A DNA stretch of 64,000 bases from positions 4,662 to 68,661 of the forward strand of contig CAJOMF010000014.1 of the NCBI GenBank assembly GCA_905235605.1. The letters are read 5' to 3'. Source of the DNA: an uncultured bacterium. GTDB taxonomy: Bacteria > UBP6 > UBA1177. This document shows positions 12,328 to 62,918 of this stretch, one piece after another. Made by a program: the position numbers and the translations under genes. How positions within the stretch are numbered: position 1 is the first letter of the stretch; each line of letters starts with the position of its first letter. A model generated the notes under the pieces. The model was not told where the DNA came from and did no database searches. It saw nothing but the letters and a program-made list of their open reading frames with translations.

Positions 12328-12353
12328 CCGGCCTTTCAGCAAAAATTTTCAGA

Positions 12354-12992
12354 CTAAAACCTATAAAAAGCGATGACCCTCTCCCCTTTTTCAAAGTCAT
12401 AGGTTTTTGTGTATTCAAGGTTCGAGTCCTGAAAAGGTTCCTGCTGGGAAGAATAGAAAACGACTAAACGTCCGCCCGGTTTGATGATCTTTCTGCAGTG
12501 CTCAAAAATTTCGTCATCGATTCTGACTGCTCTTGAAACGATGACGTCAAAATTTTCTTTAACATCGAAAAAGTTCCGGTTGATCCCTTCGGCGTTTGCT
12601 ATTCCGAGTTCCGCCGCCGTTAGGTTTATGAAGGAGATTTTCTTTCTGCTTTTATCCAGAAGCTTGAAGTCTGCATTCGGAAAGTAAAGTGCAAGCGGGA
12701 TTCCGGGAAATCCGCCGCCGGTTCCCAGATCGAGGATTTTCTCACCGTCAGAAAATATGTTTTTTTCACTTGCCGGAAACAAAGAGTCAACAAAATGCAG
12801 AAGCGCTGCTTCATGGAAATCAGTTACGGTCGTCAGGTTGTGGGTCTTGTTCCAGAAAACGAGTTTTTCCCAGAAAGAAAACATTTTTTCTGTGAGTTCT
12901 TCTGCGACACAAACACCGTATTTTTCAAGGTTTTTTGTCAGTATCTGCTGCAATGTTTCACGTGAAACATTTTCGGTTTTCTCTTTATTCAT
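12354..12992 (-). CDS. rsmG: 16S rRNA (guanine527-N7)-methyltransferase RsmG
   Basis: SAM-binding motif [17 protein letters not shown]. 212 aa. Sits downstream of mnmG as in the conserved mnmE-mnmG-rsmG cluster. Confidence 0.85.
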
Positions 12993-39627: not shown

Positions 39628-39642
39628 TTGAGAACCTCTTTT

Positions 39643-39728
39643 CCACAAAATCTCCAATTTAAACCATGAAGATTTTCACAAAATCTCCAAATTTGTAATT
39701 GCCAGATATCACAAAATCTCTAATTTTT
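39643..39728. repeat. Three direct repeats CACAAAATCTC(C/T)AAtTT at about 33-bp spacing in the divergent promoter region upstream of the DUF4143 ATPase
   Basis: Copies at 39643-39660, 39676-39694 and 39709-39728. The proximal copy is 16 nt from the ATG. Confidence 0.55.
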
Positions 39729-44667: not shown

Positions 44668-45480
44668 TCAAAAATTTTTCAGAGATTCTTTAAAAGGTTC
44701 AAAAAAACGGGAGAGTTTTTTGCTCGCCGCAGATTTTGTCAATCCGTATTTTTGGGCGATTTCCGTAAAATCGGGTCTGTAATCATGATCTGCTGAATAA
44801 GCGTCCAAAAGTTCCTTATCTATGAAAGTGTAATTCACCAAAATCTCAGGGTTAAGACCATACAACAACAAGTTTTGGAGTGTGGCCCGATAAAGTCTGT
44901 GATAAACCTCTGTAAGATCAAACTCCATTTTCAGAAGTAAGACTGTAAGGATCTCGGAGAGCATCTGATCAGGATTCTTTTTCCACTCTTCCTGGATCTT
45001 CGGGATGAGTTTCTGCAGATCTTTTTTCATAAGGCTTTTTTCCAATGGATCGGTGTCGTTATCTTCCAAAAGAGTGTCCAAAATGGAGAAAGTTTCTCCT
45101 TCATCATTCGTCTTTTCGAGTTCGGTGGTGTTTGCATGTTCTTGAATTTCTTCGCCTTTTGCGGTGTTTATCGCCTTTTTCAATGAATTGAAAAGATATT
45201 TGCTGAAAGGAGCACCATTTTTGCGTGTTTCTGACTCGGGAAACCATTTTAGGCAATCTATGACCACTTTACGAACTTCATCAACATATTCCCCGTAAGC
45301 TGATTTTTTGATCTCTTTGACTTTCAGGTCTGAATTCTGGGAGGCTCCTTTTGGGGTTAATGCTGCCAGAACGATTTTCCATGTAAAGCCTTTTATCGCG
45401 ACTTCGATGTTTTCACCACGATCAAGGGCGTTTTGATATCCTTCGTAAAGTTCGTTAATCTTTTCAAAAATTTTTTCCAT
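44668..45480 (-). CDS. Hypothetical protein with sigma-70-like region 2.2 and region 4 (HTH) signatures
   Basis: …NGAPFSKYLFNSLKKAINTAKGEE… resembles sigma region 2.2 (FSTYxxxxIRxAI). C-terminal …FTEIAQKYGLTKSAASKKLSRF resembles the region-4 HTH. First gene on the low-GC island side. Weak by-eye assignment. Confidence 0.35.
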   Translation of the reverse strand: MEKIFEKINELYEGYQNALDRGENIEVAIKGFTWKIVLAALTPKGASQNSDLKVKEIKKSAYGEYVDEVRKVVIDCLKWFPESETRKNGAPFSKYLFNSLKKAINTAKGEEIQEHANTTELEKTNDEGETFSILDTLLEDNDTDPLEKSLMKKDLQKLIPKIQEEWKKNPDQMLSEILTVLLLKMEFDLTEVYHRLYRATLQNLLLYGLNPEILVNYTFIDKELLDAYSADHDYRPDFTEIAQKYGLTKSAASKKLSRFFEPFKESLKNF

Positions 45481-45482
45481 GG

Positions 45483-46103
45483 TCAGTCCTCGAACAATGC
45501 GTTAATTGTCTTTATTGCTCGTTCACTGCTTGAAGTCTCGATCATGTTGGTAAAGTTCTGCATAAGATAGAGCGGGGTGATGTCGTAGATCATAGGTGAA
45601 CCTTCTACGATTTCGTTGTTTTTGAATTCAACTTTGGAATAAACAATGTAGCCGACGGAACAATCGAAAAATTTCTCTGCAAACTGGCACACTGTGAAAA
45701 GCAAAAATGCCAATGGTTTCGGGCCATAAGTAGTGTCGGCATAGATTTCGGCATCATGCTCGAGTTCTTTGAGGATGGCTTTGAACATAAACTGAAAATT
45801 TGTTTTCGACATATCGAACGCGCTCGGAAGTATTTTATAAGTGATTTTTGCTCCGACTTTGTTGAAATGATCGAGTTCTTCCTCAAAAAGTTTCGCGTTG
45901 TCGCTTCCAGCGTTTTCACCCCCTTTTGTCTCGAGAAGGAGAACTTTGACATCATCATCCGCTTTAAGCGAGTTTGCAAGAGCAGCTGTCGCAGCAAACA
46001 GAATAGGTTCTTTAATCTCAAGCAGAGCGTTGCCGTCAACGGGATAGACGCATTTTTTTAAATTCTTTTTAAGCGGAAGTGTTACGAATAGGATTTTTTT
46101 CAT
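45483..46103 (-). CDS. Hypothetical protein (possible Rossmann-like fold; DTTYGP motif)
   Basis: 206 aa with a 2-nt gap to the downstream sigma-like gene, so an operon. No recognisable family. Preceded by island motif copy 1. Confidence 0.4.
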   Translation of the reverse strand: MKKILFVTLPLKKNLKKCVYPVDGNALLEIKEPILFAATAALANSLKADDDVKVLLLETKGGENAGSDNAKLFEEELDHFNKVGAKITYKILPSAFDMSKTNFQFMFKAILKELEHDAEIYADTTYGPKPLAFLLFTVCQFAEKFFDCSVGYIVYSKVEFKNNEIVEGSPMIYDITPLYLMQNFTNMIETSSSERAIKTINALFED

Positions 46104-46145: not shown

Positions 46146-46178
46146 ATATAATCGGTGAAAAACGGATAAGTTGACAAA
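46146..46178. promoter_or_regulatory. Island-specific conserved motif, copy 1 (TATAAtCGGTGAAAAA-N8-GTTGACAAAA)
   Basis: 43 nt 5' of the 206-aa gene start, on the template of minus-strand genes. Four more copies elsewhere in the island. Confidence 0.5.
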
Positions 46179-46209: not shown

Positions 46210-47730
46210 TTATTGATGTTTTTCTTCACGTTTATCCATTTTCGCCAGCTCGAAAGTGAGATATATCAGGTAGATCTGAATCGCAAAAGCGTGCTTTTCA
46301 AAGAAATCGACCTCTTCGTTTTCGGAGCAGTAGAGAAAACTCATGAATTTTTTCAGATGAGCGCGTTCGTCTTCATCCAAAACATTATTATTATAGATAT
46401 TGGTTTTGTCGAGTTCCTCTTTGGGAAACTTGAGATAGCCGTCTTTATTGAAGACTTTACGCCATAATTCTTTATTGTTTGCCGCGTTGATGTTCAAAGG
46501 AGCCGTGATCTTTTTAAAATAATGCTCCAGAATTACGAGAAGTTTTTCCGCATTTTCTTTTTGAGCCGGATTTTTCTTAAGTTCACAGAGATATTGGTAA
46601 GAATCAAAAAAAGCGTAAAGGAGCAGCTTTTCCCAATACAATATTTGAAAATCGTTGAACATTTGGAAGTCGATATATTTGTCGAACAGTTTATAGACAG
46701 CGACATTCGCTCCCAAGTGGGTTATCCTGTTGCGTTCGGGATACAAAAACTTGTGATTCAGCGCACTTCTATTTGTAAAGCGGTCGTTTTTATTAGCTTT
46801 GATCGTTTGCCCGTCGAGCGAAGGATGTCCGTCCTGCCATTCCATTTCGGATTCTTCAAAGAATTTGCAGGTTATTTCCCTGCAGAATTTTTCATTTCCG
46901 GCAAAAAATGTCTGTGTAAAGCACTGATCCTTGAAACCGAAATCCAGTGTCTTGAGTGTTTTGAGATTAGTCAATACCTTTGTTATTTCTTCATTAGCTT
47001 CTGTATCGGTATAATTCGATTTTTTTCTGTTCGGGAAGATTTTAAGAATAGATTCCTGATGTTCCCTTACAAAATTCACCACATTTATGAGTTTTTCCCT
47101 CGGAACGGCTTCGTTTTCCGGCGGCATGAAATTAGCAAGGATGCGGAGAACGCCTTCATTCGCCTTGAAATAATTTCCTTCGAATTTCGTAAAATCGATA
47201 TCCGTGAATGGAGCTTTTTTTAAAAAACCGAGATCTTTGCTGATTTTATTAAGGATTTCACTCTGTTTTTCAGGCAGATACCAGGATTTTTCTTCCAAGG
47301 CCGAATCAAAAAGCTTCTTGATTTTCAATTTCCGTTCATCGGAAGCGAAAAATGTTCCGACTTCGCAGATGTCACGCAGCAGAAAGAAGAAAACTCCCTG
47401 CAGAAGCCGCATATCTTTTTCGAAAAGTTCAGGATCGATATTTTTGATCTTATCAGGTCTGGCAAGCGATATAACAGCAAAAGCCTTTTCCGCGATAGTT
47501 GTTCCAGCTATGATTCCGCTCGTTGCATTAAAAATATTTTGTTCGACTATGCTTTGGGGAGCAGAAAATACCTTTTTTAGAGAATCAATATTCAAGCCAC
47601 TTAAAGAGTTATAAAAAGCGAGAACCTTGTTCGGTTTTTCACTGAAACCACCGCGCAGGACCTCTTTGTTTTTCTTTATTTCTGCAATAATTTTATCAAG
47701 TTCTTCTTTTGATCTCATGGCATTCTCCAT
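46210..47730 (-). CDS. Hypothetical 506-aa protein (contains an Rx4H HEPN-like motif, RNRITH)
   Basis: Long ORF in the low-GC island with no recognisable catalytic family. The HEPN-like assignment is weak. Confidence 0.4.
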   Translation of the reverse strand: MENAMRSKEELDKIIAEIKKNKEVLRGGFSEKPNKVLAFYNSLSGLNIDSLKKVFSAPQSIVEQNIFNATSGIIAGTTIAEKAFAVISLARPDKIKNIDPELFEKDMRLLQGVFFFLLRDICEVGTFFASDERKLKIKKLFDSALEEKSWYLPEKQSEILNKISKDLGFLKKAPFTDIDFTKFEGNYFKANEGVLRILANFMPPENEAVPREKLINVVNFVREHQESILKIFPNRKKSNYTDTEANEEITKVLTNLKTLKTLDFGFKDQCFTQTFFAGNEKFCREITCKFFEESEMEWQDGHPSLDGQTIKANKNDRFTNRSALNHKFLYPERNRITHLGANVAVYKLFDKYIDFQMFNDFQILYWEKLLLYAFFDSYQYLCELKKNPAQKENAEKLLVILEHYFKKITAPLNINAANNKELWRKVFNKDGYLKFPKEELDKTNIYNNNVLDEDERAHLKKFMSFLYCSENEEVDFFEKHAFAIQIYLIYLTFELAKMDKREEKHQ

Positions 47731-48403: not shown

Positions 48404-49234
48404 TTATGCGGCTTTGTCGAAAGCCAATATTTTATTGATCAATTTCGACAGTGATTCTTCTTTGAGTAATTTGCCGGTGAACTTTTTTATTGTTTTATGG
48501 TACTGACGTATATCGTATATGACCTCATCTTGCTGCTCTTTGTTTCTGAACCTCAATATCATAAAACGGATGTGTCTCTGGTATGCTTTGAAATCGGAAT
48601 TCACGAAATCATAAAATGTCTTTTCAGGGAAGCGTGTATGGTAAAATATTGCAAATTCGCTTCTTGCTTCCGTCAGATCGGAATAAGACGGCTTGTCACT
48701 GTGTTGGATATCTACTATTTCGTTGTTTATTTTTCTTTGGTTTGATTGAATGAGATCGTAACCTGGGAATTTTTTTGTTTTATCGGAACTCCAGTCTCTG
48801 TCGATGGGTTTTGACGGATCAAAAAACTCTCCCGAAAGGTCGTTGATGTAAAATTCCAGATCTTCGATCCCGATCTGCTTTATTTTGTGCTTTTTCTCCA
48901 TAAACTTCCGGCCTTCAAATGTGATTTCATAACTTTCGCCGTTTTCTTTCAGCAGCTCGTTCTTTATCAGGAAATTGAATTGCATATTCAGAAAACTGTT
49001 GCTGTCTATGCCCAGGAAAGAGCATATTTTCGAATATTCGGTAATACCGTTGTCGACAAGTTTCAGGATCACCATGCTGAAACGGTCGATTTCTCTTTCA
49101 GTTTCAAAAGCGACTTTCTGTTTGCATTTCCAGAACGGGAGATCAATTTCGAAAATGTCTTCCAGCTGGAATCCTTCCGTTGAGTATTCGTCCTTGTAAA
49201 GTTCCCAGATCCTCTGTTTAAGTTCTCTATCCAT
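48404..49234 (-). CDS. Hypothetical 276-aa protein (possible wHTH), translationally coupled to the upstream helicase
   Basis: 8-nt overlap with the helicase stop (…ATGGATAG…). Central segment resembles a winged helix. Confidence 0.45.
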   Translation of the reverse strand: MDRELKQRIWELYKDEYSTEGFQLEDIFEIDLPFWKCKQKVAFETEREIDRFSMVILKLVDNGITEYSKICSFLGIDSNSFLNMQFNFLIKNELLKENGESYEITFEGRKFMEKKHKIKQIGIEDLEFYINDLSGEFFDPSKPIDRDWSSDKTKKFPGYDLIQSNQRKINNEIVDIQHSDKPSYSDLTEARSEFAIFYHTRFPEKTFYDFVNSDFKAYQRHIRFMILRFRNKEQQDEVIYDIRQYHKTIKKFTGKLLKEESLSKLINKILAFDKAA

Positions 49235-52214
49235 TGAAAACCTCCTCCAAACTGTTGAATATAAGACCTTCTTTCTGAAGTTTTTCTGCTATTTTCTGCA
49301 ATTTGAATTCCGGAAAATCCTCCGACGGGGTGAATGTCGCCCTGTTCAGGAGGTAATCGCTGTCTCCGACTACGAACAGCAGGCGTTTCGCTCTCGAAAA
49401 TGCGACGTTGATCCTTCGGTAATCGGCTAAAAATCCGATGTTGTCCTGCCCCTGAGCACTTCTGACGATGTCGTAGATTATGATATCGCGTTCGGCTCCC
49501 TGAAATTTGTCGACAGTCTTTATTTCTATGAGGGGCTCACCCTTTTCCGTTACGAAATTACGGTATTTTTTCAGATTGATCTTCTGCTTCAGAAGCTCCA
49601 CCTGACCTTTGTAGGCGGCTATAACACCAATAGTGAGCGGCTTCTCTTTTTTCGTATTGGACGGATAAAGCGAGTTGAGTTTTTCAAGCAGTTCTTTTAT
49701 GGCTTCGACATTGCACTGGTTCTGGCGGAAGAATTTGTTGCCGTTGTCGTAAGGCTGAGGTCTTTGGGAAGTGCTCAAAAACGCTATGGATGTCGGTTTT
49801 TTCAAATTCAGACCATGTGCCTTGTCGGCATCGAAGCCGGGAATATCAGGGTTTTTGAGTTTGCCGTCGTAAAAGAATTCCGAGATCAGGCTCCCGATCT
49901 GTTTAGGCATCCGGTACTGGATATCGAGCATTCTTATGAAACGCTCGTTCGGAGTTCCCTGAAATCCTTTTTTTATTTTTTCGAAAAGACTGACTCCGTA
50001 GGTTTTGTCTATATCGAGACCGTCGTCTTCCATTTTTTCTCTGACATTCTTTCTTACAGCTTCTTCTCTTGTGATAACTGGCGGAAGCTGCCTGTCATCT
50101 CCTATCATTATGATGTTTTTCCCCATGCTCAAAGGGACAAGCGATTCTGCAGGGGTGGCTTTGCTGCTTTCATCCATTATTACATAGTCGAATTCAAAAT
50201 GTATATTCCGATATTTGCTGCTTGCGATATGGATGCATGTCGCTCCGACAACATTCGTGTTGTTAAGCATCGCGCTCAGGAGATCTATCTTTTCGCTTCC
50301 GTTGTCCAGCAGTGCTTTGTTTTTGAGCAGACCGTTGCCTATAAATGCAAGCCAATCTTTATTTATCTCAAGCAATATCCCGTTTTGGTCTTTGTCCGCG
50401 AACTCTTTTGAAAAATTTTCCGATGATGTTTTTGCCGTGTCGTTTATGTATTTTTCCAGCTTTTTTTCGAAGCAGTGCTGTTTCATCAGAATCGAAACAT
50501 TGTCCTTTTCCAAAGCGTTGTCACTTGCCAGCCGCATGAATGTCACATCTTTTTCTCCAGCAAGTTTTTCCAGGACGTTGTCCACTGCCAGATTCGACTG
50601 GGATGTCAGCAGGATCCTGACGTTTTTATTCTGTTTGATCAATTGGAGTATGATCTCAAGGATAACTGTCGTCTTGCCTGTTCCGGGAGGGCCTTGAATG
50701 AGGTATATCGGTTTGTAGTTGATCGCATCGACAACAGCTTCCAATTGAGATTCATCGTTTTCCAGCTTAGGATTGAAAAGATCATTCAGAATGTCGGCAT
50801 GATCCGATGGATGGATTCTGCAAGGTATTTCGCTTTCAGGCGTGGTTACTATGTCACACAGTTGTTTATTCACAATATCGCGCTGTTGAAATTGCTGACA
50901 GGCCTCTATCTGCTTTTTAAACTGGCTCGTTTTTTGATTGGTGTCTTCTGTAATGGTCCATGATTCAGGGATTTCTTCAATATTCCGTTTTGGATCTTTT
51001 ATCGTTATAGTTCCATCTTCCGGGCCGTAGTCGAGGATCTCACCGATCAGCGGAAGCGGAGGTTTTTTGCTCTGTAAAAACACTTTCGTTTGTTCATTTT
51101 TCAGTTCTTTGATCTTGCCCCAGTTGATCCCAGTATAGTCCTTTAAATAGAAGATCAAATCACCGTTGTCGCTTTCTTCTACCTTGTCATACTTTACTGC
51201 AAAGGCATTTTCTTCGATGTAGCGTTTTTCCGACTGAGGCAGTTCCTTCCAAATCTCCAATTCATTTTGTTGAGTCCGGTTCAATTCAGACAGCCTGTTG
51301 CTTTTCACTGCTGAGCGGAAATGGCGGCTCAATGGTGGCAGTTTTTTCAGCAGATCTATCAGATCTGCATACTTAGAAAAACGTTCGGTGCGTTCCTCTG
51401 CCAATGACCCAGACAGTATCAGATCGATGGTCTCCTTATGGTCTTCAGTCGCATAATTCTCTCTGATAAAATCCTCGAAAGTCTTTATGAGAGAGTAGAT
51501 ATCATCCTGAAAATTTATCCGGCCGTTTCTGCTAGAAAGATATCTTTTTGCTCCAGCAGAAAGATAATTTTGATCAAGCAGTCCTTCATCGGCGAAGATG
51601 TCGAAAAGTTTTGCGAAAAGGAGTTCTGCACGTCCCTCATCGTCAATTTTGATGTATTTTGGTGATATTATGAATTTCTCTGAATTCTCGTTTTTCTTGA
51701 ACCAATCGAGGCCGAGAGCAATATTGGTAACATCGGTGATATCAACTTTTTCGGCGGATTCTTCAAGCATGTTGTCTCCGAAATTCTCATAAACTATGTA
51801 ATAAAAATGCTGATTTTCATCGTATCCTGTATCCATGATCTTTACAAATCCAGGGATCTCTTTGTCAATCAAAGGCTTTATTTCGTAATCAAGGATCCTT
51901 TTTATCTTTCTGGCGTTTGTTTCCGTTTCTTTTATCATCAGAATGTCAAAGATTTCGCCTTCACGGTTTTCGCACCCTTCGAAAAAACGGAGGTTGGAAC
52001 TTAATTCTTTCGAAGCTGAGATAACGGTGTAATTTCCTATCGTTTCTGTGCCCGATATGTCATTTGCTGCACTCTCTTCCTCTTCTTCAAAGACCTCTTC
52101 GGAATCAAAATCCATGCTTAATGATTCATAAGAAAAGAAACGGTCGGATCTCCCCGAATAGGTGAGTTCTTCGATCGGTTCTCCGAGATAGAATAAATTC
52201 GAGTTTTTTTTCAT
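49227..52214 (-). CDS. Upf1-like SF1B helicase (DNA2/NAM7, AAA_11/AAA_12-type) with roughly 480-aa uncharacterised N-terminal domain
   Basis: Walker A GPPGTGKTT. Motif II VIMDESSKA. Motif III/IV region. Motif VI KFQGAERDIIIYDIVRS. Start placed at MKKNSNLF (ATG 52214) after GGAGG. N-terminal half has no clear family but shows a kinase-like beta3-K / hinge pattern. Confidence 0.7.
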   Translation of the reverse strand: MKKNSNLFYLGEPIEELTYSGRSDRFFSYESLSMDFDSEEVFEEEEESAANDISGTETIGNYTVISASKELSSNLRFFEGCENREGEIFDILMIKETETNARKIKRILDYEIKPLIDKEIPGFVKIMDTGYDENQHFYYIVYENFGDNMLEESAEKVDITDVTNIALGLDWFKKNENSEKFIISPKYIKIDDEGRAELLFAKLFDIFADEGLLDQNYLSAGAKRYLSSRNGRINFQDDIYSLIKTFEDFIRENYATEDHKETIDLILSGSLAEERTERFSKYADLIDLLKKLPPLSRHFRSAVKSNRLSELNRTQQNELEIWKELPQSEKRYIEENAFAVKYDKVEESDNGDLIFYLKDYTGINWGKIKELKNEQTKVFLQSKKPPLPLIGEILDYGPEDGTITIKDPKRNIEEIPESWTITEDTNQKTSQFKKQIEACQQFQQRDIVNKQLCDIVTTPESEIPCRIHPSDHADILNDLFNPKLENDESQLEAVVDAINYKPIYLIQGPPGTGKTTVILEIILQLIKQNKNVRILLTSQSNLAVDNVLEKLAGEKDVTFMRLASDNALEKDNVSILMKQHCFEKKLEKYINDTAKTSSENFSKEFADKDQNGILLEINKDWLAFIGNGLLKNKALLDNGSEKIDLLSAMLNNTNVVGATCIHIASSKYRNIHFEFDYVIMDESSKATPAESLVPLSMGKNIIMIGDDRQLPPVITREEAVRKNVREKMEDDGLDIDKTYGVSLFEKIKKGFQGTPNERFIRMLDIQYRMPKQIGSLISEFFYDGKLKNPDIPGFDADKAHGLNLKKPTSIAFLSTSQRPQPYDNGNKFFRQNQCNVEAIKELLEKLNSLYPSNTKKEKPLTIGVIAAYKGQVELLKQKINLKKYRNFVTEKGEPLIEIKTVDKFQGAERDIIIYDIVRSAQGQDNIGFLADYRRINVAFSRAKRLLFVVGDSDYLLNRATFTPSEDFPEFKLQKIAEKLQKEGLIFNSLEEVFNG

Positions 52215-52251
52215 TTTTTCCTCCTTGAGAAGCGTTACATCCAACACCACT

Positions 52252-52284
52252 TATAAGCGGTGAAAAATCCCTGAGTTGACAAAA
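52252..52284. promoter_or_regulatory. Island-specific conserved motif, copy 3
   Basis: TATAAGCGGTGAAAAATCCCTGAGTTGACAAAA, 38 nt 5' of the helicase start. Confidence 0.5.
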
Positions 52285-54073: not shown

Positions 54074-54364
54074 TTAGGCAACGCAAAGAAGACGGTATTC
54101 TTCGTGCCATGTTCTGTCGTCTTCAAAAGCGATAATGTTTCTGAGTTTTCGTCTGAATTCGCGCTGAGGTTTGTCACTTTTGTAGAAGGAATAGTGCGTA
54201 AGGTGGTAACAGCCGCATTTTGAGCAGTAATATTTCCTTTTCGGGATCTCGTTCGCGTGTCCGCATTTTTTTGCTCCGTTGAGAGCGTTTCCCGCTTCTC
54301 TTTCAGTGTAGCAGATCTTTCCCGTGCTTTTGCATCTCAAATCTCTTCCGAAATCGTCTTTCAT
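54074..54364 (-). CDS. Small zinc-ribbon protein (CxxxxxxC … CSKCGC)
   Basis: 96 aa, basic, two Cys clusters. GGAGGG RBS. Island motif copy 4 lies 44 nt upstream. Confidence 0.4.
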   Translation of the reverse strand: MKDDFGRDLRCKSTGKICYTEREAGNALNGAKKCGHANEIPKRKYYCSKCGCYHLTHYSFYKSDKPQREFRRKLRNIIAFEDDRTWHEEYRLLCVA

Positions 54365-54407
54365 CTTTTCCCTCCATTTGTCTTGTCAATCAAACGCCTA
54401 CACGACA

Positions 54408-54440
54408 TGTAAGGGGTGGAAAATGAGAGAGTTGACAAAA
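54408..54440. promoter_or_regulatory. Island-specific conserved motif, copy 4 (degenerate 5' half)
   Basis: TGTAAGGGGTGGAAAATGAGAGAGTTGACAAAA. Confidence 0.45.
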
Positions 54441-54454
54441 TTTGCCTCCTTTTT

Positions 54455-55012
54455 TCATACTAAAGTGTTAAAAAGCCTGTCCCCAGTGTCTGGTCCTATG
54501 CCGTTTTTTTGAGTCAAAACTTTTTGACCGACAAAAGAATTATTTGAAACTCTGACTGTAAAAACTTCATAATCGTTGAATTTTTTAATAGATTTCTCGC
54601 ACAAAACATTCGTGACAATTTTAATTTTATCTTTTGGAATCTCAGATTTTTCGATTGCACTCAAAATGCCCTTTCCTGAATTGATAACTGCATCTACGAA
54701 AATAACGTCTTTGTTGAAAAGCAGCAGTTTGTTTTTCTCAAAAAAATCCTTGTCTGTTTTGTCATCGTAAAATGTTACGGCACAATCCAGACAATCTGCA
54801 AAACCTAAAGCCATTGGAATCCCAGCCCTTATTAAAGCTATGATTATGGAATCTTTTGTGAAGTGATTTTTAAAATATTTCCCTAATGCAAATCCCAAAT
54901 CAATATGAGCATGTCTCAATTCAGCTCCAGTTTTTTGAGAGTCACTTTTGCAAATACTGATTGCGTCAACAATTTTATCTGTTGAAAAATTTTCGCTTAA
55001 AACATACAGCAT
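54455..55012 (-). CDS. Uracil phosphoribosyltransferase-like PRTase (Upp family)
   Basis: PRPP-binding loop VIFVDAVINSGKG. C-terminal GIGPDTGDRLFNT matches the Upp tail (GLGDAGDRLFGT). GAGGAG RBS. 2-nt gap to the upstream gene. Confidence 0.65.
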   Translation of the reverse strand: MLYVLSENFSTDKIVDAISICKSDSQKTGAELRHAHIDLGFALGKYFKNHFTKDSIIIALIRAGIPMALGFADCLDCAVTFYDDKTDKDFFEKNKLLLFNKDVIFVDAVINSGKGILSAIEKSEIPKDKIKIVTNVLCEKSIKKFNDYEVFTVRVSNNSFVGQKVLTQKNGIGPDTGDRLFNTLV

Positions 55013-55014
55013 TA

Positions 55015-56220
55015 CTATTCTCCTCTGATTCCTTTATATTGATTTTCATTCCCTGCAAACTGTCGTATTGCGGTGTTTCTATGATTATCAATGTATGTTT
55101 GTACAGCAGGTCTTATTTTCCCTGGAGCCCAGAGGTAGCCGCTTGACATTTCAAGCATATAAATGTCGCACATGCTGTCTCCGGCACTAAAAACTTCGTA
55201 ATTTTGTAACAGAAGCAATTCTACGACATAACCTTTGACAAAATCCGAGATAAGATTCTTTGAGTTTTGGTTGAGATCGTTGCCTATTACCATTTCAAAT
55301 AAATGATGCTCTGCATTGAATTGATTCCAAAATTTATATATTCCAGAGGTGAGTCCAAACACGTGATACCCAGAAGTTTTTAAAGATTTTAGTTTTTCGA
55401 TGACGATATTATTGGCATGAAATAAAGAGGTCTTAGGGTGTTTTTTGAAGTTCTTGTATAATTCCTTTTGTCGCCAAAACTGATATACAGAATAGATATC
55501 GTCTGTAAAAATGGTTTTTAATATTGCAGGATCGGTGTTGTTGAGTTCAAAAAACGGAATAGTCGAATCCTCTTTAATGATGGTCTTGTCACAATCAAAT
55601 ATGGCGATTTTTTTAAATTTGTTTGGGTCGGAGCGTGTGTTCTCAATTTGAGAAACAATTCTTTGAGCTATGTTCATAGGTGTTAATTCAGGGAAACAAT
55701 CCATGTATTCATGCAAAAACTTCATGTCCAGATCAAAATCAGCATCCAGAACAATGAATTCTTTACGAGATTTGAAGCATATATCTCTAAGTTCCGAAAT
55801 CTCTTTTAATTGCCAATCTTTTATTTGTTGTTCCGTAAGATTTCTAAATTTTTGATTTTTCTGGCTTAAATTTATTCTTTCTTTTGCAATAGATGGATTG
55901 ACGTGCAGGTACAAAAATATGTCGTACAACTTACAATCGTTTTCTGTGCAAACAATTTTAAAACTTTGAGAATCAGGAAAACAATAGTGACCATCGACAA
56001 TAAAATCCTGTTGATTTTTTAATTCTTCTGCGAAAATAGTTCTTGTCCTTTTTTGAAGTTCGGAATCTAATTCCTGAAAATTTTTGCAATATATCCTGTT
56101 AGATATGATGTTTAATTGCTCAGATCCTTTCTTGTGGCAGTATTGCGGAAAATGACGAAGAAATTTTTCTATAAACGTGTCTTTCCCGGCACAGGAAATT
56201 CCATATACAGCAATCTTCAT
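55015..56220 (-). CDS. Fusion of a P-loop nucleoside/nucleotide kinase-like domain (Udk/NRK-like) and a HAD-superfamily phosphatase domain
   Basis: N-terminal KIAVYGISCAGKDT P-loop. C-terminal HAD motif I IAIFDCDKTII (DxDxT) and motif IV GDSMCD. ATGA overlap with the radical SAM gene. Confidence 0.6.
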   Translation of the reverse strand: MKIAVYGISCAGKDTFIEKFLRHFPQYCHKKGSEQLNIISNRIYCKNFQELDSELQKRTRTIFAEELKNQQDFIVDGHYCFPDSQSFKIVCTENDCKLYDIFLYLHVNPSIAKERINLSQKNQKFRNLTEQQIKDWQLKEISELRDICFKSRKEFIVLDADFDLDMKFLHEYMDCFPELTPMNIAQRIVSQIENTRSDPNKFKKIAIFDCDKTIIKEDSTIPFFELNNTDPAILKTIFTDDIYSVYQFWRQKELYKNFKKHPKTSLFHANNIVIEKLKSLKTSGYHVFGLTSGIYKFWNQFNAEHHLFEMVIGNDLNQNSKNLISDFVKGYVVELLLLQNYEVFSAGDSMCDIYMLEMSSGYLWAPGKIRPAVQTYIDNHRNTAIRQFAGNENQYKGIRGE

Positions 56221-57128
56221 TTTATATCCCCTATATATTTGTCAAAATAGCATTCCCCGTCATTAAGCTGCTTAAATCGTTGCATGGATTTTTCTACCGA
56301 TATTAACGAATCTGACGCCTTGCCTATTTCATATTCAGGTAGTCCGATGAATCTGCCGCAAGGGTATATTTTATTGTTCGCATAAAAAATGTTTGTTTTT
56401 CCGACCCCGCATAACTGACCATACATCGTGCAGTCGTATCGTTTGGGTTTGCGCAACTGTCTCAGTAACAGTTTTTTTTGAGAGGCCTCCTCTATAAATT
56501 TAATAAAATCGCCTTTGGATATGTATAAATCCGGAGATTTTTCATCCACAAGTCTGGAAAAGCAGACTTCGGAAAAATTCTGCTCAAAAAATCTAAGAGT
56601 TTCTGTTTCGCTGCTCAGTGTTCCTTTGTGAACAGTTGCATTTACGGAAGGTGTTTCCTGAAAGATTTTTTTATATAGATTTATAGAGTTCATTACAATG
56701 TCAAAGGAGCCTTTTCCGTAGGCAAGTGTTCTGCATGAATCATGTAGATTTTTATCGCCGTCTATGGAAAAACATAGTTTTATTAAATCCCGATTGTTGT
56801 GGAACCACCGGATAATATTTTCTGTGGCAGAGATCCCGTTGGTTATGGTGTAAAAAGACAGCAGTTTATGTTTGGCGATCAGCCTGGTATACGAGACAGC
56901 TTCTTGTATTAAATCAAACCGGATTAACGGTTCCCCTGCGCCGACAAGTCCGATTTTGAAATTTATCTTGTTCTCTTCTGAATAAGCAACAATGTTGGAT
57001 ATAATATTGAGCAGAACTTCTGTAGAAATGTCATTGCAAGACTGCTTTGAAACATGCTTGTCAAAGTGGCAGTATCTGCAGCGAAGTTGGCATTTGCCTG
57101 TTATGGAAATACAAGCTCTGTCAATCAT
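56217..57128 (-). CDS. Radical SAM enzyme, MoaA/viperin-like (CxxxCxxC near N-terminus, GAGEPL)
   Basis: ISITGKCQLRCRYC (CX3CX2C) resembles the MoaA N-terminus (ISVTDRCNLRCTYC). …NKINFKIGLVGAGEPL… resembles viperin/MoaA (EKINFSGGEPF). C-terminal Cys pair. Start at MIDRAC (ATG 57128) after GAGG. Confidence 0.7.
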   Translation of the reverse strand: MIDRACISITGKCQLRCRYCHFDKHVSKQSCNDISTEVLLNIISNIVAYSEENKINFKIGLVGAGEPLIRFDLIQEAVSYTRLIAKHKLLSFYTITNGISATENIIRWFHNNRDLIKLCFSIDGDKNLHDSCRTLAYGKGSFDIVMNSINLYKKIFQETPSVNATVHKGTLSSETETLRFFEQNFSEVCFSRLVDEKSPDLYISKGDFIKFIEEASQKKLLLRQLRKPKRYDCTMYGQLCGVGKTNIFYANNKIYPCGRFIGLPEYEIGKASDSLISVEKSMQRFKQLNDGECYFDKYIGDIK

Positions 57129-57129
57129 T

Positions 57130-58389
57130 TCAGACCTCATTGTTTTCAGTTTTTGCAAATTTTTTATTAATTTCAGGATCGTTGATTTGGAGGGCATAAT
57201 CTTTGGCGGTTTTGTTTTCGTAACGACTGTGAATATTTAAGTCTGTTTTATCAACAAGATAGTTTGCAACATCAGAACACTTTCTAATGCAAGCTTTTAT
57301 TAAAGGCGTAAAACCGTTGGAATCCTGTTGGTTGCAGCAAGCTCCCTGTTCAACAAGATATTTTACTATCTCAAGTTCTCCATGCCATGCAGCGATCATC
57401 AAAGCAGTGTTTCCGTAATTATCGCCTTGCGAACCTTTGTCTATGTCAGCCCCGTTTTGCAATAGGATTTTTATAAATTCTAAATTTTTTATTTGAACCG
57501 CATGGCTAATTGGTGGAAGTCTGTATTTTGCATCGTCGCATTTATTTATATCTGTTCCCGGCAGGGAAATAAGGTATTCGAGCATTTTTTTGTCTCTATT
57601 TCTGATTGCTTGAATGCAAGGGGTATATCCCGTTTTGGGGTCAGTATGATTTATGTCGGGATTTCCCTTTTTTACTTTCTCTGCATCCAAAATATTTCCG
57701 TTTTTAACAGCATTGTAAAAATTGCCGGTGTCTCTGGGGCTAAAATCTTCATCCGATAGAGAGAATTCTCTTTCGTAATCCTCAAGATTTAACACTTTGA
57801 AATTTAGAGTTGATGCAGCTTTCAAAGGGAAATAAACATCTTCAGCAAGAAGAAAAACGGTTAGTGATGAGTCTTTTTTGGCTTCACGCAGAGCAGCATT
57901 TATGATTTTATTGTCGTTGAAATTCTCATTTTTATTAACAACATCTTCGAGAACTAAAAATCTTTTTTCATCTTTTTTCTGCAAATCAACAAAAGACTTC
58001 ATAGCTAGCCAAGCCTGTTGCTTTCGTTTTCCACGATCTTTTTGGTAATTCATTTCATCAAGAACTGTTTCGGTAATGCAGATATAGTTAATGGCTTTTT
58101 TTCCATTCATTTCTTCCAAAATTCTTGGTCTGCGGCACAATATGGATGAATCCACGATCAGCATGATTTTTTTTGATTTTTTCAATCCTAACAATTCGTC
58201 AATGCTCACACAAAATGTTTGAGCTATTTGAATTAGCTGGTCGGTTGTCGGAAGACTTTTCGCTTGTTCCCAATTCGACACTGTAGGTCTTGAAACATTG
58301 AGCTTGTTTGCAAACTCTTCTTGTTTTAGCCCTTTGGAATTTCTTAACTCTTCAATGTTTTTAGCAATTTCGTCTTTTGAGTAATTCAT
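57130..58389 (-). CDS. XRE-family HTH + PIN-like domain + ankyrin-repeat protein
   Basis: HTH_XRE (LKQEEFANKLNVSRPTVSNWEQ). PIN-like acidic motifs (KIMLIVDSSIL…ITETVLDEM). At least two ankyrin repeats (GNTALMIAAWHGELEIVKYLVEQGA…). AGGAG RBS. Confidence 0.6.
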   Translation of the reverse strand: MNYSKDEIAKNIEELRNSKGLKQEEFANKLNVSRPTVSNWEQAKSLPTTDQLIQIAQTFCVSIDELLGLKKSKKIMLIVDSSILCRRPRILEEMNGKKAINYICITETVLDEMNYQKDRGKRKQQAWLAMKSFVDLQKKDEKRFLVLEDVVNKNENFNDNKIINAALREAKKDSSLTVFLLAEDVYFPLKAASTLNFKVLNLEDYEREFSLSDEDFSPRDTGNFYNAVKNGNILDAEKVKKGNPDINHTDPKTGYTPCIQAIRNRDKKMLEYLISLPGTDINKCDDAKYRLPPISHAVQIKNLEFIKILLQNGADIDKGSQGDNYGNTALMIAAWHGELEIVKYLVEQGACCNQQDSNGFTPLIKACIRKCSDVANYLVDKTDLNIHSRYENKTAKDYALQINDPEINKKFAKTENNEV

Positions 58390-58590
58390 TTTTTTCTCCT
58401 TTCAAGTGGTTCTGTTTCTCAAAAAAACAATCAACGAAAAGTATTTTAAGCAAGAATTTTTAATGTCAATATCAATTACTTGTATTTTGACCAATGTTAA
58501 ATCTTCTTACATTTGTAAAAAATCCTGACATCGCAATAAATAGAACAATGTATCCTTTTTTCACTTATCAAAGAACCTTTCTGCTCTACC

Positions 58591-58624
58591 TATAAGCGTC
58601 AAAAACTTTCTGAGTTGACAAATA
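58591..58624. promoter_or_regulatory. Island-specific conserved motif, copy 5
   Basis: TATAAGCGTCAAAAACTTTCTGAGTTGACAAATA, about 200 nt 5' of the XRE-PIN-ANK gene. Confidence 0.45.
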
Positions 58625-58695: not shown

Positions 58696-59553
58696 TTAGT
58701 ACAACTTTTCCTTGTGTTCCAATTCGAGTTTTTTATCGTCGATGGAAGCCTTGAGGATTTCGTAGTATTTCTGGCGTGTAAATATGTTTGCTTTGTATTG
58801 TGCGTGCTGTTTGCCGTCCAGTTTGCTCTCAACTGCATGCCGTTTCAGAATCTCTTCGACAAAACGGTTCGGGATCGCGTAGTCGATAAGCAGACAGTCG
58901 ATGAGATCGACTTTGCTCCTGCCGTTCAGGAAAGCGCAGGTTTTGAGAACATGGACGATTCTTTTCCAGCGGGAGTCACTTACATAGAACTCGAAGCACT
59001 TTCTTCTGATTTCTGAAATGACACTTTTGGCTTCTTCGCTCAGTTCGACCCTGTCGATTACCGGCTGCCACTCTTTTACTTCCTTTATTGTAAGCAGTGC
59101 GGCTTTTTGTTCTTTATCGGGATGCGGGATTGTCTCGAAGCTGGGACTGTTTACGAAGTTAAAAAAATTGTCGTCATCCGCAATCGGTTTTACCTCGACA
59201 GTAATGACCCAATCTTCATTATTTTCCGCAGCTTTATAGGGATCTGCTTCCGACGAGTTTTCCATACGGAATAAAGAATCAATGCCGTATTCTGACGACC
59301 GGGGGGCAAACTGATCATGGCTGTAATAATCTTTAAACGCACTTTGGATAGAGAACTGAATAAGTTTTTTGTCGTTGTCGGATCTTCCGGAAAGAATAAT
59401 GTCTTCCGCAGCAACAGCCGAAAGCAGCGAAAGGTTGATTACTTCCTCTCTGCCTCGCAGATTACGGTTTAAAAAGGCAAGAACAGTTTCAATACGGTCA
59501 CGCATTTCCTTGCCGGAAAAAATCTTTTTTTCTCCCGAATTGTTGTCGCTCAT
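58696..59553 (-). CDS. Hypothetical protein (island edge, adjacent to tRNA-Leu)
   Basis: ATG 59553 after GAGG. No recognisable family. A partial motif-like TTTTTGACAATTTT lies at 59603-59616 upstream. Confidence 0.4.
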   Translation of the reverse strand: MSDNNSGEKKIFSGKEMRDRIETVLAFLNRNLRGREEVINLSLLSAVAAEDIILSGRSDNDKKLIQFSIQSAFKDYYSHDQFAPRSSEYGIDSLFRMENSSEADPYKAAENNEDWVITVEVKPIADDDNFFNFVNSPSFETIPHPDKEQKAALLTIKEVKEWQPVIDRVELSEEAKSVISEIRRKCFEFYVSDSRWKRIVHVLKTCAFLNGRSKVDLIDCLLIDYAIPNRFVEEILKRHAVESKLDGKQHAQYKANIFTRQKYYEILKASIDDKKLELEHKEKLY

Positions 59554-59680
59554 CTTCAACCTCGTAAAAAGTGATTAAAAAACTGCGTAATTTTAAAGAA
59601 GAAGAGATTTTTGACAATTTTTTGCGGGAAACGGTTTTTCAGCTTTTCTATTTGCTGCAAAGCTTGGATTGTTCTAAAAA

Positions 59681-59768
59681 TGGTGCCGGAGACCGGGCTC
59701 GAACCGGTACAGGAGGTTATCCCGAGGGATTTTAAGTCCCTTGCGTCTACCAATTCCGCCACTCCGGC
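59681..59768 (-). tRNA. tRNA-Leu (anticodon UAA), CCA encoded
   Basis: Minus-strand read: GCCGGAGTGGCGGAATTGGTAGACGC…AGGGACTTAAAATCCCT…GGTTCGAGCCCGGTCTCCGGCACCA. Long variable arm. Anticodon loop CTTAAAA. Confidence 0.85.
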
Positions 59769-59785
59769 GGTTATAAGTTTGAAAA

Positions 59786-59859
59786 TGGAGGCACCTTCCG
59801 GATTCGAACCGGAGATGGAGATTTTGCAGACCTCTGCCTTACCTCTTGGCTAAGGTGCC
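59786..59859 (-). tRNA. tRNA-Cys (anticodon GCA), CCA encoded
   Basis: GGCACCTTAGCCAAGAGGTAAGGCAGAGGTCTGCAAAATCTCC…GGTTCGAATCCGGAAGGTGCCTCCA. Anticodon loop CTGCAAA. Confidence 0.85.
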
Positions 59860-59897
59860 GACCAAAAAGAATTTCGATTGAAAAAGGACATAAAAAA

Positions 59898-59973
59898 ATG
59901 GAGCGGGAAACGGGATTCGGACCCGCGACGTCTACCTTGGCAAGGTAGCACTCTACCACTGAGTTATTCCCGC
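59898..59973 (-). tRNA. tRNA-Gly (anticodon GCC), CCA encoded
   Basis: GCGGGAATAACTCAGTGGTAGAGTGCTACCTTGCCAAGGTAGACGTCGCGGGTCCGAATCCCGTTTCCCGCTCCA. Anticodon loop TTGCCAA. Confidence 0.85.
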
Positions 59974-61565: not shown

Positions 61566-62918
61566 CTACTTTTTAGACGCGATTTTTGTCTCAAAAATCC
61601 ATTTTTTCAGCAAAAAGGCACAGAAATGAGGGAAGGTGTAGAATTTTCCGTTGAATCCGATGTTTCCGCCGCAGAATTTTATGCCGTATTTTATGTCGTG
61701 ATACTTTTCTTTTTCAATGAGTTTGTTGAGCGAAGCGGTCGCGCTGTCCTGCGCTTTGACTTCGACCGGAACAAGGGAATCGGCATCGCGCACGAAGAAA
61801 TCCATCTCGACAGTCGATTTTTCGTCTTTGTAGTAAAAAAGTTCGTATCCCTGCTTTACGAGCATGTCGCCGATGACATTTTCATAAACTGCACCTTTAT
61901 AGATATTGAAATTTTTGTTCCGGCGCAGATCCTCCTGGGCTTCCTCGTCAAGAGATGCGATCAAAAGCCCCGTGTCACGGAAATAAATTTTGAAATCGTT
62001 TGCCTTATAGTTGCCTTTCAGCGGCAGTTCCGGTGTTTCAAGACAGTGGCAGACATTGATTATTCCGGCATCTCGGAGCCATTCGACCGTTCCGGCATAC
62101 TCGCGGTTTCTTGCTCCCGTTGCGATTTTCGACACCTGATATTTTTTGTTCTCTTTTGCTAGAAAAACAGATATGTTGTCGTAAACATTGGTGATTTTTC
62201 CTTTGTCAAGACCTGCTGCATATTTTGTTATATCCTCTTTGTAGGCGGCAAGTATCTGCCTTTGCGCATCTAAAGTTCCCGAAAAGTTTTTCTGCTCCGC
62301 AAACATCCTGACAACCGCCGGCATACCTCCGAGAGTCATATATTCAGTAAAGTTTTCCTGCCACACCGCGTATTCGTTCTGATTGAAAGGCTCAATATTT
62401 TTCATGTGTTGGAAAATCGTTGCAATCTGATCTTTTCCGAAGCCTTTCGCCCAAAGAAATTCCTCGAAATCGAGAGAATGCATCTCTAAATCCTTTTTGT
62501 AGCCGACACTGACGGAAGTCACTTCATTGTAGTTTATTCCGAGCATTGATCCCGAGCAGATCACGTCATAACGCCCGTCGATCTTAAAGAATTTCAGACA
62601 TGTCGCACAGTCTGGGCAGGCCTGCATCTCGTCGAAAAAAATCAAAGTCTCTTTCGGAACGAATTTGAAAGAAGGGTTAATGAAGCTTATCTCCTTTATG
62701 ACCGAATCGGGCGAATAGCCGCCCGCAAAAATATTTTTGTACTTCGGCTCCTCGATAAAATTTATCTCGACAAAGTATTTATAAGTTTCGGCAAAACGTC
62801 TGATCGAGAAAGTTTTTCCTACCTGACGCGCTCCCTTTACAATAAGCGGAAGCCTTTCCGGATTCTTTTTCCACTCAAGAAGAAAATCATCAATTTTTCT
62901 ATGAAGTATTTCGGGCAT
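61566..62918 (-). CDS. AAA_14 + DUF4143 family ATPase (second copy)
   Basis: Walker A GARQVGKTF. Same architecture and length class as the 38269-39627 gene. Confidence 0.65.
   Translation of the reverse strand: MPEILHRKIDDFLLEWKKNPERLPLIVKGARQVGKTFSIRRFAETYKYFVEINFIEEPKYKNIFAGGYSPDSVIKEISFINPSFKFVPKETLIFFDEMQACPDCATCLKFFKIDGRYDVICSGSMLGINYNEVTSVSVGYKKDLEMHSLDFEEFLWAKGFGKDQIATIFQHMKNIEPFNQNEYAVWQENFTEYMTLGGMPAVVRMFAEQKNFSGTLDAQRQILAAYKEDITKYAAGLDKGKITNVYDNISVFLAKENKKYQVSKIATGARNREYAGTVEWLRDAGIINVCHCLETPELPLKGNYKANDFKIYFRDTGLLIASLDEEAQEDLRRNKNFNIYKGAVYENVIGDMLVKQGYELFYYKDEKSTVEMDFFVRDADSLVPVEVKAQDSATASLNKLIEKEKYHDIKYGIKFCGGNIGFNGKFYTFPHFCAFLLKKWIFETKIASKK

Follow-up and report, generated by a model that had tools for sequence, protein, structure and literature searches.

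The subject of this analysis is a gene cassette in a 64,000-nt stretch of DNA, hereafter the window, from an uncultured bacterium of the GTDB lineage UBP6; UBA1177 (GenBank assembly GCA_905235605.1, contig CAJOMF010000014.1, positions 4,662 to 68,661 of the forward strand). From position 54441 of the window to ~58640 lies a four-gene unit that encodes a helix-turn-helix (HTH)-PIN-ankyrin protein (G1), a radical S-adenosylmethionine (SAM) enzyme (G2), a fusion of a P-loop kinase with a HAD phosphatase (G3), and an Upp-like phosphoribosyltransferase (PRTase; G4). We tentatively interpret this unit, at a rough probability of 0.45, as a conflict system that would make a modified, probably pyrimidine-type nucleotide, with the PIN-ankyrin (PIN-ANK) protein as its obligate partner. 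The cassette is apparently undescribed: it is not covered by PADLOC systems, by NCBIfam families or by source annotations, no description of this gene combination was found in full-text literature searches, and, generic Pfam and NCBIfam domains aside, none of its proteins passes the cut-off of any curated family or PADLOC system.

Five open reading frames (ORFs), all in the same orientation on the minus strand, span positions 54074-58389: G1 (57130-58389, 419 aa, with XRE-type HTH_3, PIN_4 and ankyrin repeats), G2 (56217-57128, 303 aa counted from the ATG at 57128), G3 (55015-56220, 401 aa), G4 (54455-55012, 185 aa, UPRTase family) and G5 (54074-54364, 96 aa), a small four-cysteine protein labelled a 'zinc ribbon'. 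G1 ends with GTC TGA (stop codon at 57132-57130) and, after a single base, the ATG of G2 follows at 57128, with a GAGG 6 nt 5' of it; G2 and G3 share an ATGA overlap (56217-56220), G3 and G4 are separated by a 2-nt gap, and G4 and G5 by 90 nt. An earlier reading of these letters made without database searches (the sequence-only reading) had listed the five ORFs, the first three of these junctions, and the CX3CX2C, GAGEP, Walker A, HAD (FDCDKT and GDSMCD) and PRTase motifs, all of which are present, the junctions exactly as described. It had also joined the five genes into one system, of which the G1-G4 unit stands and the zinc ribbon falls away, given the 90-nt gap, the lack of distant homologues and the persistence of G5 in strains free of the cassette.

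The linkage of the four genes is conserved over a wide phylogenetic range. In a scan of one genome per species, cassette loci were found in 47 of 185,579 species, and the order G1-G2-G3-G4 was kept in essentially all 47 loci long enough to hold it, plus further metagenome loci (phmmer on locus ORFs); the fifth gene of the neighbourhood proposed earlier never recurred. These loci span at least ten phyla, archaea included, and comprise Treponema, Fibrobacter, Brachyspira, Vibrio/Enterovibrio, Neptuniibacter, Colwellia, Pasteurellaceae, Neisseria, Campylobacter/Helicobacter, Clostridia/Ruminococcus, Haloplasmataceae/Anaeroplasmataceae (Mollicutes-like), Lentisphaerae, Kiritimatiellae and the archaeal Methanomassiliicoccaceae (Methanomassiliicoccales). 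Gene order was identical in Desulfovibrio subterraneus, Vibrio crassostreae and a Treponema metagenome-assembled genome, in unrelated flanks, and G2 homologues of 35-90% identity were all unnamed or named generically.

Gene fusions are stronger evidence than synteny by itself that the radical SAM enzyme belongs with the nucleotide enzymes. G3 and G4 are fused into a single kinase-HAD-PRTase protein of 533-599 aa at 15 loci, protein P0233 is a radical SAM-kinase-HAD fusion, and P0235 combines kinase, HAD, PRTase and radical SAM domains in one chain, preceded only by a PIN-ANK gene. The proposal that PRTase, kinase and radical SAM enzyme form one unit is therefore borne out both by strict synteny in ~47 genomes and by three types of fusion. 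A profile search with the kinase-HAD alignment returned 136 matches at E <= 1e-30 among 1.84 billion representative proteins, P0233 and P0235 included.

Some loci carry additional genes. In L017, a HisJ-type PHP phosphatase is inserted inside the operon, while in L059 a PHP gene lies upstream of G1; L026 and L036 share a trio of an isochorismatase-like hydrolase, a membrane protein with ten transmembrane segments (permease-like) and an adenine-PRTase-like enzyme. These accessory PHP, hydrolase and PRTase inserts point to the handling of a free base and phosphate esters. In the Ruminococcus clade, a NERD protein with a transmembrane segment is inserted in the operon: in L041-L045 it measures 346-379 aa, ends in a C-terminal hydrophobic segment and lies between the radical SAM and kinase-HAD-PRTase genes (e.g. 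L041 10875-11987), sometimes followed by a 50-aa ORF. This protein may be an extra effector. The L059 locus (GCA_021378535.1, 5674-18214) reads PHP, PIN-ANK without HTH, radical SAM-kinase-HAD and UPRTase, and continues without a gap into purE-purK-purL-purF-purM-purN; as table 11 produces stops in it, this locus must be read with a non-standard genetic code.

G1 matched HTH_3 (6e-14), PIN_4 (7e-8) and Ank_2 (6e-44) in Pfam. Its PIN domain (aa 77-193; 57811..58161, minus strand) scores 33.3 bits against the PIN_4 cut-off of 21.9 and contains the full acidic tetrad of PIN-domain nucleases, D80, E112, D159 and D184, which is invariant or nearly so in alignments A4 and A8; the nearest solved PIN domains, of PIN_4 type, are those of SMG5 (E = 4e-4) and SMG6 (7e-4), both weak matches. 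In the ankyrin-repeat domain (aa 243-405; 57175..57663, minus strand) polar loop residues are strongly conserved, the invariant positions including S320, N324, N327, N353, D356, N358, G359, T361 and K365. The HTH domain (aa 8-70; 58180..58368, minus strand), which gives weak matches to antitoxin hidden Markov models (HMMs), is facultative across the family, being missing in about ten lineages that retain PIN-ANK (L009, L011, L017, L034, L037, L047, L049, L059, L060/61).

The earlier inclusion of this protein in the cassette was well founded: wherever a locus extends far enough, PIN-ANK stands 5' of the radical SAM gene, and the divergence of G1 and G2 from the window sequences co-varies (Spearman rho 0.75). 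A search with the HTH-PIN half of G1 retrieved close relatives only, mostly short (160-344 aa), and P0167 (207 aa), the one checked, ends at a contig end. From its sequence, the PIN domain is predicted to be an intact RNase, the HTH domain, where present, to autoregulate the operon, and the ankyrin surface is likely to be a sensor or regulatory module.

G2 begins directly at the radical SAM core (MIDRAC...), without an N-terminal extension, and contains the CX3CX2C motif at C13/C17/C20 and GAGEP, with GGEP in the alignment. Four further invariant cysteines (C233-x6-C240-x16-C257...C293) are enough for one auxiliary cluster, short of the full SPASM motif of seven to eight cysteines and two auxiliary clusters, and their spacing parallels what we take to be the Aux I ligands of anSME. 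In NCBIfam, G2 scored 112 bits for PapB (cut-off 340), 102 for the SCIFF maturase (425) and 80 for anSME (349), compared with 37.2 for MoaA (TIGR02666, cut-off 284) and 35.0 and 31.7 for the PADLOC pVip models. A profile search of the PDB yielded CteB (6e-25), anSME (3e-21) and, over the N-terminal core only, MoaA (6e-6), with no viperin among the matches at E <= 1e-3. The AlphaFold2 (AF2) model of G2 (predicted local distance difference test, pLDDT, 92) matched CteB at a Foldseek template modelling (TM) score of 0.76 and anSME at 0.75-0.77 (0.73-0.77 for CteB and anSME overall), also ChlB, and more distantly BlsE (0.57), MoaA (0.60) and viperins (0.49-0.61). This model can be aligned with CteB and anSME as far as the middle of their SPASM domains, so that cysteine pattern and model together show the twitch structural class: a radical SAM core followed by a truncated SPASM domain with the cysteine set of one cluster.

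Because cysteine pattern, HMM scores, PDB profile matches and fold matches agree, G2 is assigned, with its model as guide, to a twitch-type (half-SPASM) offshoot of the SPASM clade with one predicted auxiliary cluster. The sequence-only reading had likened the enzyme to MoaA and viperin; that likeness goes no further than the core common to radical SAM enzymes, the top matches by HMM and by fold being SPASM/twitch maturases, and HMM scores, PDB profile search and fold search rule out either identity. It had further named, as the outcome that would speak against a nucleotide system, a SPASM maturase with a nearby precursor peptide. Half of this description applies, as the fold is SPASM-derived, but no RRE leader-binding domain was found in G2, and when ORFs of 20-110 aa within 800 bp of ~45 cassettes were clustered, none was conserved beyond close relatives; the widely conserved small-ORF clusters all fall inside the four genes, as frame shadows. 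The missing RRE, the mere four extra cysteines and the absence of a conserved small ORF outside close relatives rule out a ribosomal-peptide maturase with its own precursor.

G3 joins two domains with intact catalytic motifs (AF2 model, pLDDT 93). The N-terminal domain (aa 1-185; 55666..56220, minus strand) is a P-loop nucleoside monophosphate (NMP) kinase of the archaeal adenylate-kinase type by structural similarity, with an intact Walker A (GISCAGKDT, G7..G12-K13) and a DGH motif at residues 76-78. The C-terminal domain (aa 204-360; 55141..55611, minus strand) is a phosphoserine-phosphatase-like HAD-IB domain by both fold and sequence, with all four motifs in place (D209xD211xT213 in FDCDKT, T291, K329, and G347-D348...D352 in GDSMCD). 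Walker A, DGH and the four HAD motifs are invariant in the alignment. The kinase had earlier been called Udk-like, an identity to be discarded, since there is no Udk/PRK family match and the fold is that of an adenylate-kinase-type NMP kinase.

G4 passes the Pfam UPRTase model (5e-11; 42.9 against 27 bits) and remains below the cut-offs of the Upp equivalogs (TIGR01091, 20.1 against 208 bits; NF001097, 22.9 against 114 bits); it is therefore a family-level relative of Upp only. It carries GIGPDTGDRLFNT, together with an MRAGL-type RAG loop, the phosphoribosyl pyrophosphate (PRPP) loop DAVINxGK (here VDAVINSGKG) and GPDTGDRLF, and R62, D107, D175, T176 and R179 are invariant. Its closest solved relative is Thermotoga maritima Upp (1o5o; 4e-8 in the PDB search), in which DPMLATG aligns with DAVINxGK and GLGDAGDRLF with GPDTGDRLF; the Upp motifs are recognisable, the substrate being predicted by sequence only.

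Collinear kinase-HAD-UPRTase homologues of G3+G4, 650-810 aa long, also exist as single proteins (P0269, P0264, P0252, P0284 and P0311). P0269 is fungal (Hortaea werneckii KAI6885563.1, locus L058), 26% identical and equipped with the family-specific PRTase motifs, and the others are unassigned; the 8 kb around P0269 are free of radical SAM genes. Judged from its sequence, the fungal protein may be an uncharacterised eukaryotic nucleotide enzyme.

Comparison of related strains identifies the cassette as a horizontally mobile, strain-variable insert. The exact G5 protein occurs on at least 41 contigs, and the exact G1-G4 proteins on 3-7. Of the contigs with identical G5, 21 were read, and 19 of these lack the cassette and have a polysaccharide-biosynthesis cluster directly upstream of G5; among these 21 contigs, the cassette is present only in the window's own arrangement (L065, 100% identical). 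Homology to the cassette-free strains L062 and L064 begins at 54440, which places the downstream boundary of the insert at 54440..54441: from that position, 14 nt past the G4 stop and exactly at the element TTTTGTCAACTC, cassette-free strains match the window at 92-94% DNA identity. Conversely, the cassette-bearing strains L056 and L057 (89-94% identity) share with the window only 54461 to 58639/58542, corresponding to G1-G4 with a leader of 150-250 nt, so a module of ~4.1-4.2 kb is found in three different flanks at 89-94% identity. From 54 to 59 kb the GC content drops to 0.34-0.375, most of the window lying at ~0.44-0.49, and genes for tRNA-Leu, tRNA-Cys and tRNA-Gly lie at 59681-59973; the low-GC, tRNA-adjacent island proposed earlier is real, and is a strain-variable insert in a defence hotspot.

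The zinc-ribbon gene G5 belongs to the resident flank, because the breakpoint precedes it and cassette-free strains carry it unchanged. Neither G5 nor the 287-aa ORF upstream of the cassette has a homologue next to any distant cassette (phmmer, locus ORFs), which rules out both as components; for G5 the empty-site comparison does so as well. Pfam, NCBIfam and PADLOC contain no family that G5 matches; a polysaccharide cluster usually lies ahead of its gene, and an Lcl_C lipoprotein gene follows. In the cassette-free L064, a different insert (9278-12973) occupies the site after the Lcl_C lipoprotein gene and encodes a 298-aa radical SAM protein, a 41-aa ORF and an 882-aa protein with faint ankyrin similarity, followed by Mokosh; this alternative insert confirms the variable hotspot. 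No recombinase or terminal inverted repeat was found for the module, and an att repeat derived from the tRNA was rejected, no second copy of the tRNA-Leu 3' end being present within the window. Carriage by phages or plasmids was likewise dismissed: 2.9 million viral contigs contained one cassette locus, PLSDB contained none, and INPHARED phages offered only radical SAM genes of 22-31% identity.

The upstream edge of the module is marked by the core of an island element, TTTGTCAACTC (58612..58622, minus strand), 233 nt 5' of the G1 start. This exact 11-mer recurs at 54429-54439 and 52273-52283, and with one mismatch at 46168-46178, always on the minus strand, giving three exact copies in the window against ~0.03 expected. 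It is part of a ~45-nt motif, TTTTTTGTCAACTC-N5-TTTTTCACCGCTTATAnGTnGTGT, that heads four successive modules, namely the cassette, the G5-lipoprotein pair, the MkoA-like helicase and the CARF gene. Strains with and without the cassette diverge exactly at the 5' edge of this element, which could serve the modules as a common promoter or operator, or else be a site at which recombination shuffles them.

Within the G1 leader, the operator-like palindrome TGTCAGGATTTTTTACA (58514..58530, minus strand), a degenerate TGTCA-N7-TGACA, is a candidate site for the G1 HTH domain. An exact GTCA-N7-TGAC stands at the equivalent position in Treponema/Fibrobacter-type leaders (L002, L006, L008, L010 and L057), and the palindrome occurs in 6 of 28 leaders as against 1.9% of control windows, a pattern that would fit HTH autoregulation by G1. 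A sigma-70-like promoter (58440..58469, minus strand; TTGACA-18-AATACT, 10/12 matches) is a weak candidate, as the number of such sites in the region is not above that in shuffles. A riboswitch was discarded: the 233-nt leader gave nothing credible against Rfam (the best match being a snoRNA model, E = 0.48), and, the operator-like palindrome apart, it is kept only among close relatives.

Around the cassette, the window contains an MkoA-like helicase (4e-137), a CARF gene (2e-72) and PDC-S01 ATPases. The 1007-aa helicase (49227-52250, minus strand; PADLOC MkoA) forms a Mokosh-like pair with the gene at 48404-49234 (minus strand), whose product is a 276-aa winged HTH protein (HTH_45, weak MkoB N-terminal match) and not a PLD nuclease; the sister strains L057 and L062 have the classical Pkinase-helicase and PLDc_2 pair at the equivalent spot, and in a sister strain the full Mokosh pair adjoins the cassette. 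The stand-alone 206-aa CARF protein (45483-46103, minus strand; PADLOC CARF2 2e-72, Csx1 6e-38) lies in a stretch with a GC content of 0.36-0.41, with no Cas genes seen near it, and is flanked by a 506-aa protein without family matches (46210-47730, minus strand) and a 270-aa protein with two sub-threshold Pfam matches (44668-45480, minus strand). Two AAA_14/DUF4143 ATPases (61566-62918 and 38269-39657, both minus strand) match PADLOC PDC-S01 at 2.7e-150 and 4.8e-102, a family that also adjoins the cassette in Treponema (L002) and in L056. The 287-aa ORF (58696-59559, minus strand) matches only AAA_lid_8, the RavA/MoxR lid, and looks like the remnant of a bpMoxR ATPase, an intact bpMoxR and VWA pair occupying its place in the sister strain L056. 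Elsewhere, the archaeal locus has HmaB and HmaC immediately upstream, and a survey of 140 flanking ORFs revealed scattered type II restriction-modification, AbiD, DrmC, PDC-S01, PDC-S26 and MADS genes together with two integrases; being aggregated counts, these are suggestive and not conclusive.

The character of a conflict system is suggested by the sparse distribution (47/185,579), low GC content, strain variability, sharp breakpoint, defence neighbours and the precedent of the anti-phage system Ophion, considered below. For such a system we infer the following chemistry, product and role in defence. G4 would join PRPP and a free base, probably one resembling a pyrimidine, into an NMP, which the adenylate-kinase-like domain of G3 would phosphorylate to the diphosphate, the triphosphate then being formed by the host Ndk (assumed). 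G2 would carry out a 5'-deoxyadenosyl-initiated radical modification of the nucleotide or of the base precursor, and the HAD-IB domain of G3 would remove a phosphate, thereby finishing, limiting or quickly turning over the product. This product may interfere with phage nucleic-acid synthesis as a toxic or chain-terminating analogue, as in viperin-kinase pairs and Ophion, and G1 would regulate the process and/or execute a response through its PIN RNase. Anti-phage or anti-mobile-element immunity would be the most likely role.

Several observations weigh against this interpretation. Many flanking genes are housekeeping genes, and no neighbour besides G1-G4 is conserved; the nearest relatives of G2 by HMM and fold (PapB, SCIFF maturase, CteB and anSME) modify peptides or proteins; and the kinase-HAD-PRTase module may be purely metabolic, because fungi carry a stand-alone homologue without a nearby radical SAM gene. 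Moreover, a kinase fused to a phosphatase looks antagonistic, its logic lacking an explanation, and a chain-terminator model leaves the constant presence of PIN-ANK equally unexplained. The last two points are accounted for by a less probable alternative, a signal-effector circuit resembling that of RNase L, in which the nucleotide made by G2-G4 would be read by the ankyrin repeats of G1, its appearance or loss switching on the PIN domain and leading to abortive infection. PIN-ANK is the one strictly invariant non-enzymatic partner, retained without HTH and even beside the four-domain enzyme fusion, its acidic tetrad is intact, the unusual conservation of the ankyrin loop residues suggests a fixed ligand or partner, and a kinase-phosphatase fusion would yield a metabolite of fast turnover; the gating of RNase L through its ankyrin repeats provides a precedent. 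However, known immune messengers are one step away from abundant nucleoside triphosphates (NTPs) or NAD, whereas a multi-step route from a free base would be slow, no infection sensor is evident among G2-G4, and nucleotide reading by bacterial ankyrin repeats is conjecture here. More speculatively, and at somewhat longer odds, the cassette could be a prokaryotic counterpart, or the inverse, of the oligoadenylate synthetase (OAS)-RNase L pathway, with a nucleotide made by radical SAM chemistry, kept short-lived by the HAD domain and read by the ankyrin repeats, gating the PIN RNase. With the logic inverted, this metabolite would instead be a small-molecule antitoxin, whose level would collapse when a phage drains SAM, PRPP or ATP or shuts down host expression, and so unleash the RNase.

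An accessory metabolic operon that would salvage or detoxify some uncommon nucleobase or nucleoside supplied by the gut, the rumen or the sea, with an XRE-type regulator and without any conflict with phages, appears unlikely. The enzymes are of salvage type, L026 and L036 add a permease-like protein, an isochorismatase-like hydrolase and a second PRTase, the L059 cassette runs into purEKLFMN, and both the stand-alone fungal homologue and the many housekeeping flanks would suit it; yet a catalytically intact PIN domain invariably coupled to ankyrin repeats does not belong to metabolic regulators, the HTH domain being dispensable and PIN-ANK not, and the distribution is extremely sparse across domains of life, presence varies between strains in a defence hotspot, and no curated metabolic family scores above cut-off. 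Modification by G2 of G1 itself, or of a host or phage protein, with a secondary role for the nucleotide enzymes, is doubtful to a greater degree, even though SPASM-family maturases of peptides or proteins come first by HMM, by sequence and by fold alike: scores stay far below the cut-offs (e.g. 112 against 340 bits), there is one auxiliary cluster and neither an RRE nor a conserved precursor ORF, the radical SAM enzyme is fused to kinase-HAD or PRTase domains in some lineages, and the twitch enzymes BtrN, BlsE and MoaA, the latter two among the fold matches, act on small molecules. Least credible of all is a toxin-antitoxin-like G1, with a PIN toxin and an HTH antitoxin-like domain, hitch-hiking with unrelated metabolic cargo. 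While its HTH-PIN layout recalls VapBC-type modules and the HTH domain resembles antitoxins weakly, G1 is strictly linked to the enzymes and diverges along with G2, its stop is translationally coupled to the G2 start, and PIN-ANK persists without HTH.

Should the cassette prove to be a phage-defence system, it would represent a third independent recruitment of radical SAM enzymes to nucleotide-based immunity, after viperin and Ophion, and one from the SPASM/twitch branch, otherwise known mainly for peptide maturation. It would imply that a new modified nucleotide or nucleoside exists, which might serve as a scaffold for antivirals or antimetabolites, as well as a new enzyme architecture in which an NMP kinase and a HAD phosphatase share one chain, in many cases with a PRTase and in some with the radical SAM enzyme. 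The OAS-RNase L version, if true, would provide the first ankyrin nucleotide sensor of bacterial immunity and the first immune ligand made by a radical SAM enzyme. With its invariant PIN-ankyrin partner, the cassette allows a direct test of whether small-molecule synthesis is tied to an RNase, and it is small (4.1 kb), self-contained and present in cultivable facultative hosts (Vibrio, Neisseria, Pasteurellaceae, Neptuniibacter).

PADLOC 2.0 returned no match of all components to a single system, the weak single-domain matches being to pVip, VakA (1.6e-3), PRTase_III-A (1.3e-3) and PDC-M72A (ankyrin only). Viperins make chain-terminating 3'-deoxy-3',4'-didehydro-NTPs (ddhNTPs), and both prokaryotic viperins (pVips) with nucleotide kinases and the vertebrate viperin-CMPK2 pair resemble the cassette in pairing a radical SAM enzyme with an NMP kinase; G2, however, has an auxiliary-cluster domain that viperins lack, and the cassette adds PRTase, HAD and PIN-ANK. 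The SPASM/twitch enzymes (CteB, anSME, PapB, and the small-molecule enzymes BtrN, BlsE and MoaA) share with G2 the core and a C-terminal cysteine-rich auxiliary-cluster domain, whereas G2 differs from SPASM enzymes in having the cysteines of one cluster instead of seven or eight, in lacking an RRE and a precursor, in its identity of 18-21%, and in its fusions and nucleotide-enzyme context. In RNase L, ankyrin repeats bind 2',5'-oligoadenylate (2-5A) and gate the fused RNase; G1 is analogous in combining ankyrin repeats with a predicted endoribonuclease domain tied to enzymes that would make a special nucleotide, but RNase L has a KEN instead of a PIN domain and a pseudokinase absent from G1, and no homology is claimed.

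Nucleoside antibiotics offer another comparison. Toyocamycin is made by a pathway that uses a PRTase and a HAD phosphatase (ToyH/ToyI) with the radical SAM enzyme ToyC, and Ter-linked PRTase-HAD systems were reportedly predicted by Anantharaman, Iyer and Aravind in 2012. Such nucleoside-antibiotic and nucleoside-like pathways proceed, as the cassette would, from base and PRPP to a nucleotide, its tailoring and HAD dephosphorylation, but their clusters rely on other enzyme families, are large and lineage-restricted, and lack PIN-ankyrin and the kinase-HAD fusion.

Ophion, a validated system against jumbo phages in Pseudomonas aeruginosa, consists of the radical SAM enzyme OpnA, the PHP phosphatase OpnB and the PRTase OpnC; residues of its radical SAM enzyme and PRTase are essential, and its authors propose nucleotide interference (bioRxiv 10.1101/2025.09.30.679545). 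Like the cassette, it is a compact operon within a defence island in which radical SAM, phosphatase and PRTase activities are predicted side by side. OpnB is homologous to the accessory PHP protein of L017 (26% identity, E = 4e-21), whereas the window cassette has no PHP gene, and Ophion lacks the kinase-HAD fusion and PIN-ankyrin. OpnA, which is without the four twitch cysteines, matches G2 at 27% over 105 aa (E = 1e-3) in the generic N-terminal core only, and OpnC has no similarity to G4 by BLASTP, which together rule out orthology. Judged by these sequence comparisons, Ophion is the closest validated analogue of the cassette, a thematic parallel assembled from different families.

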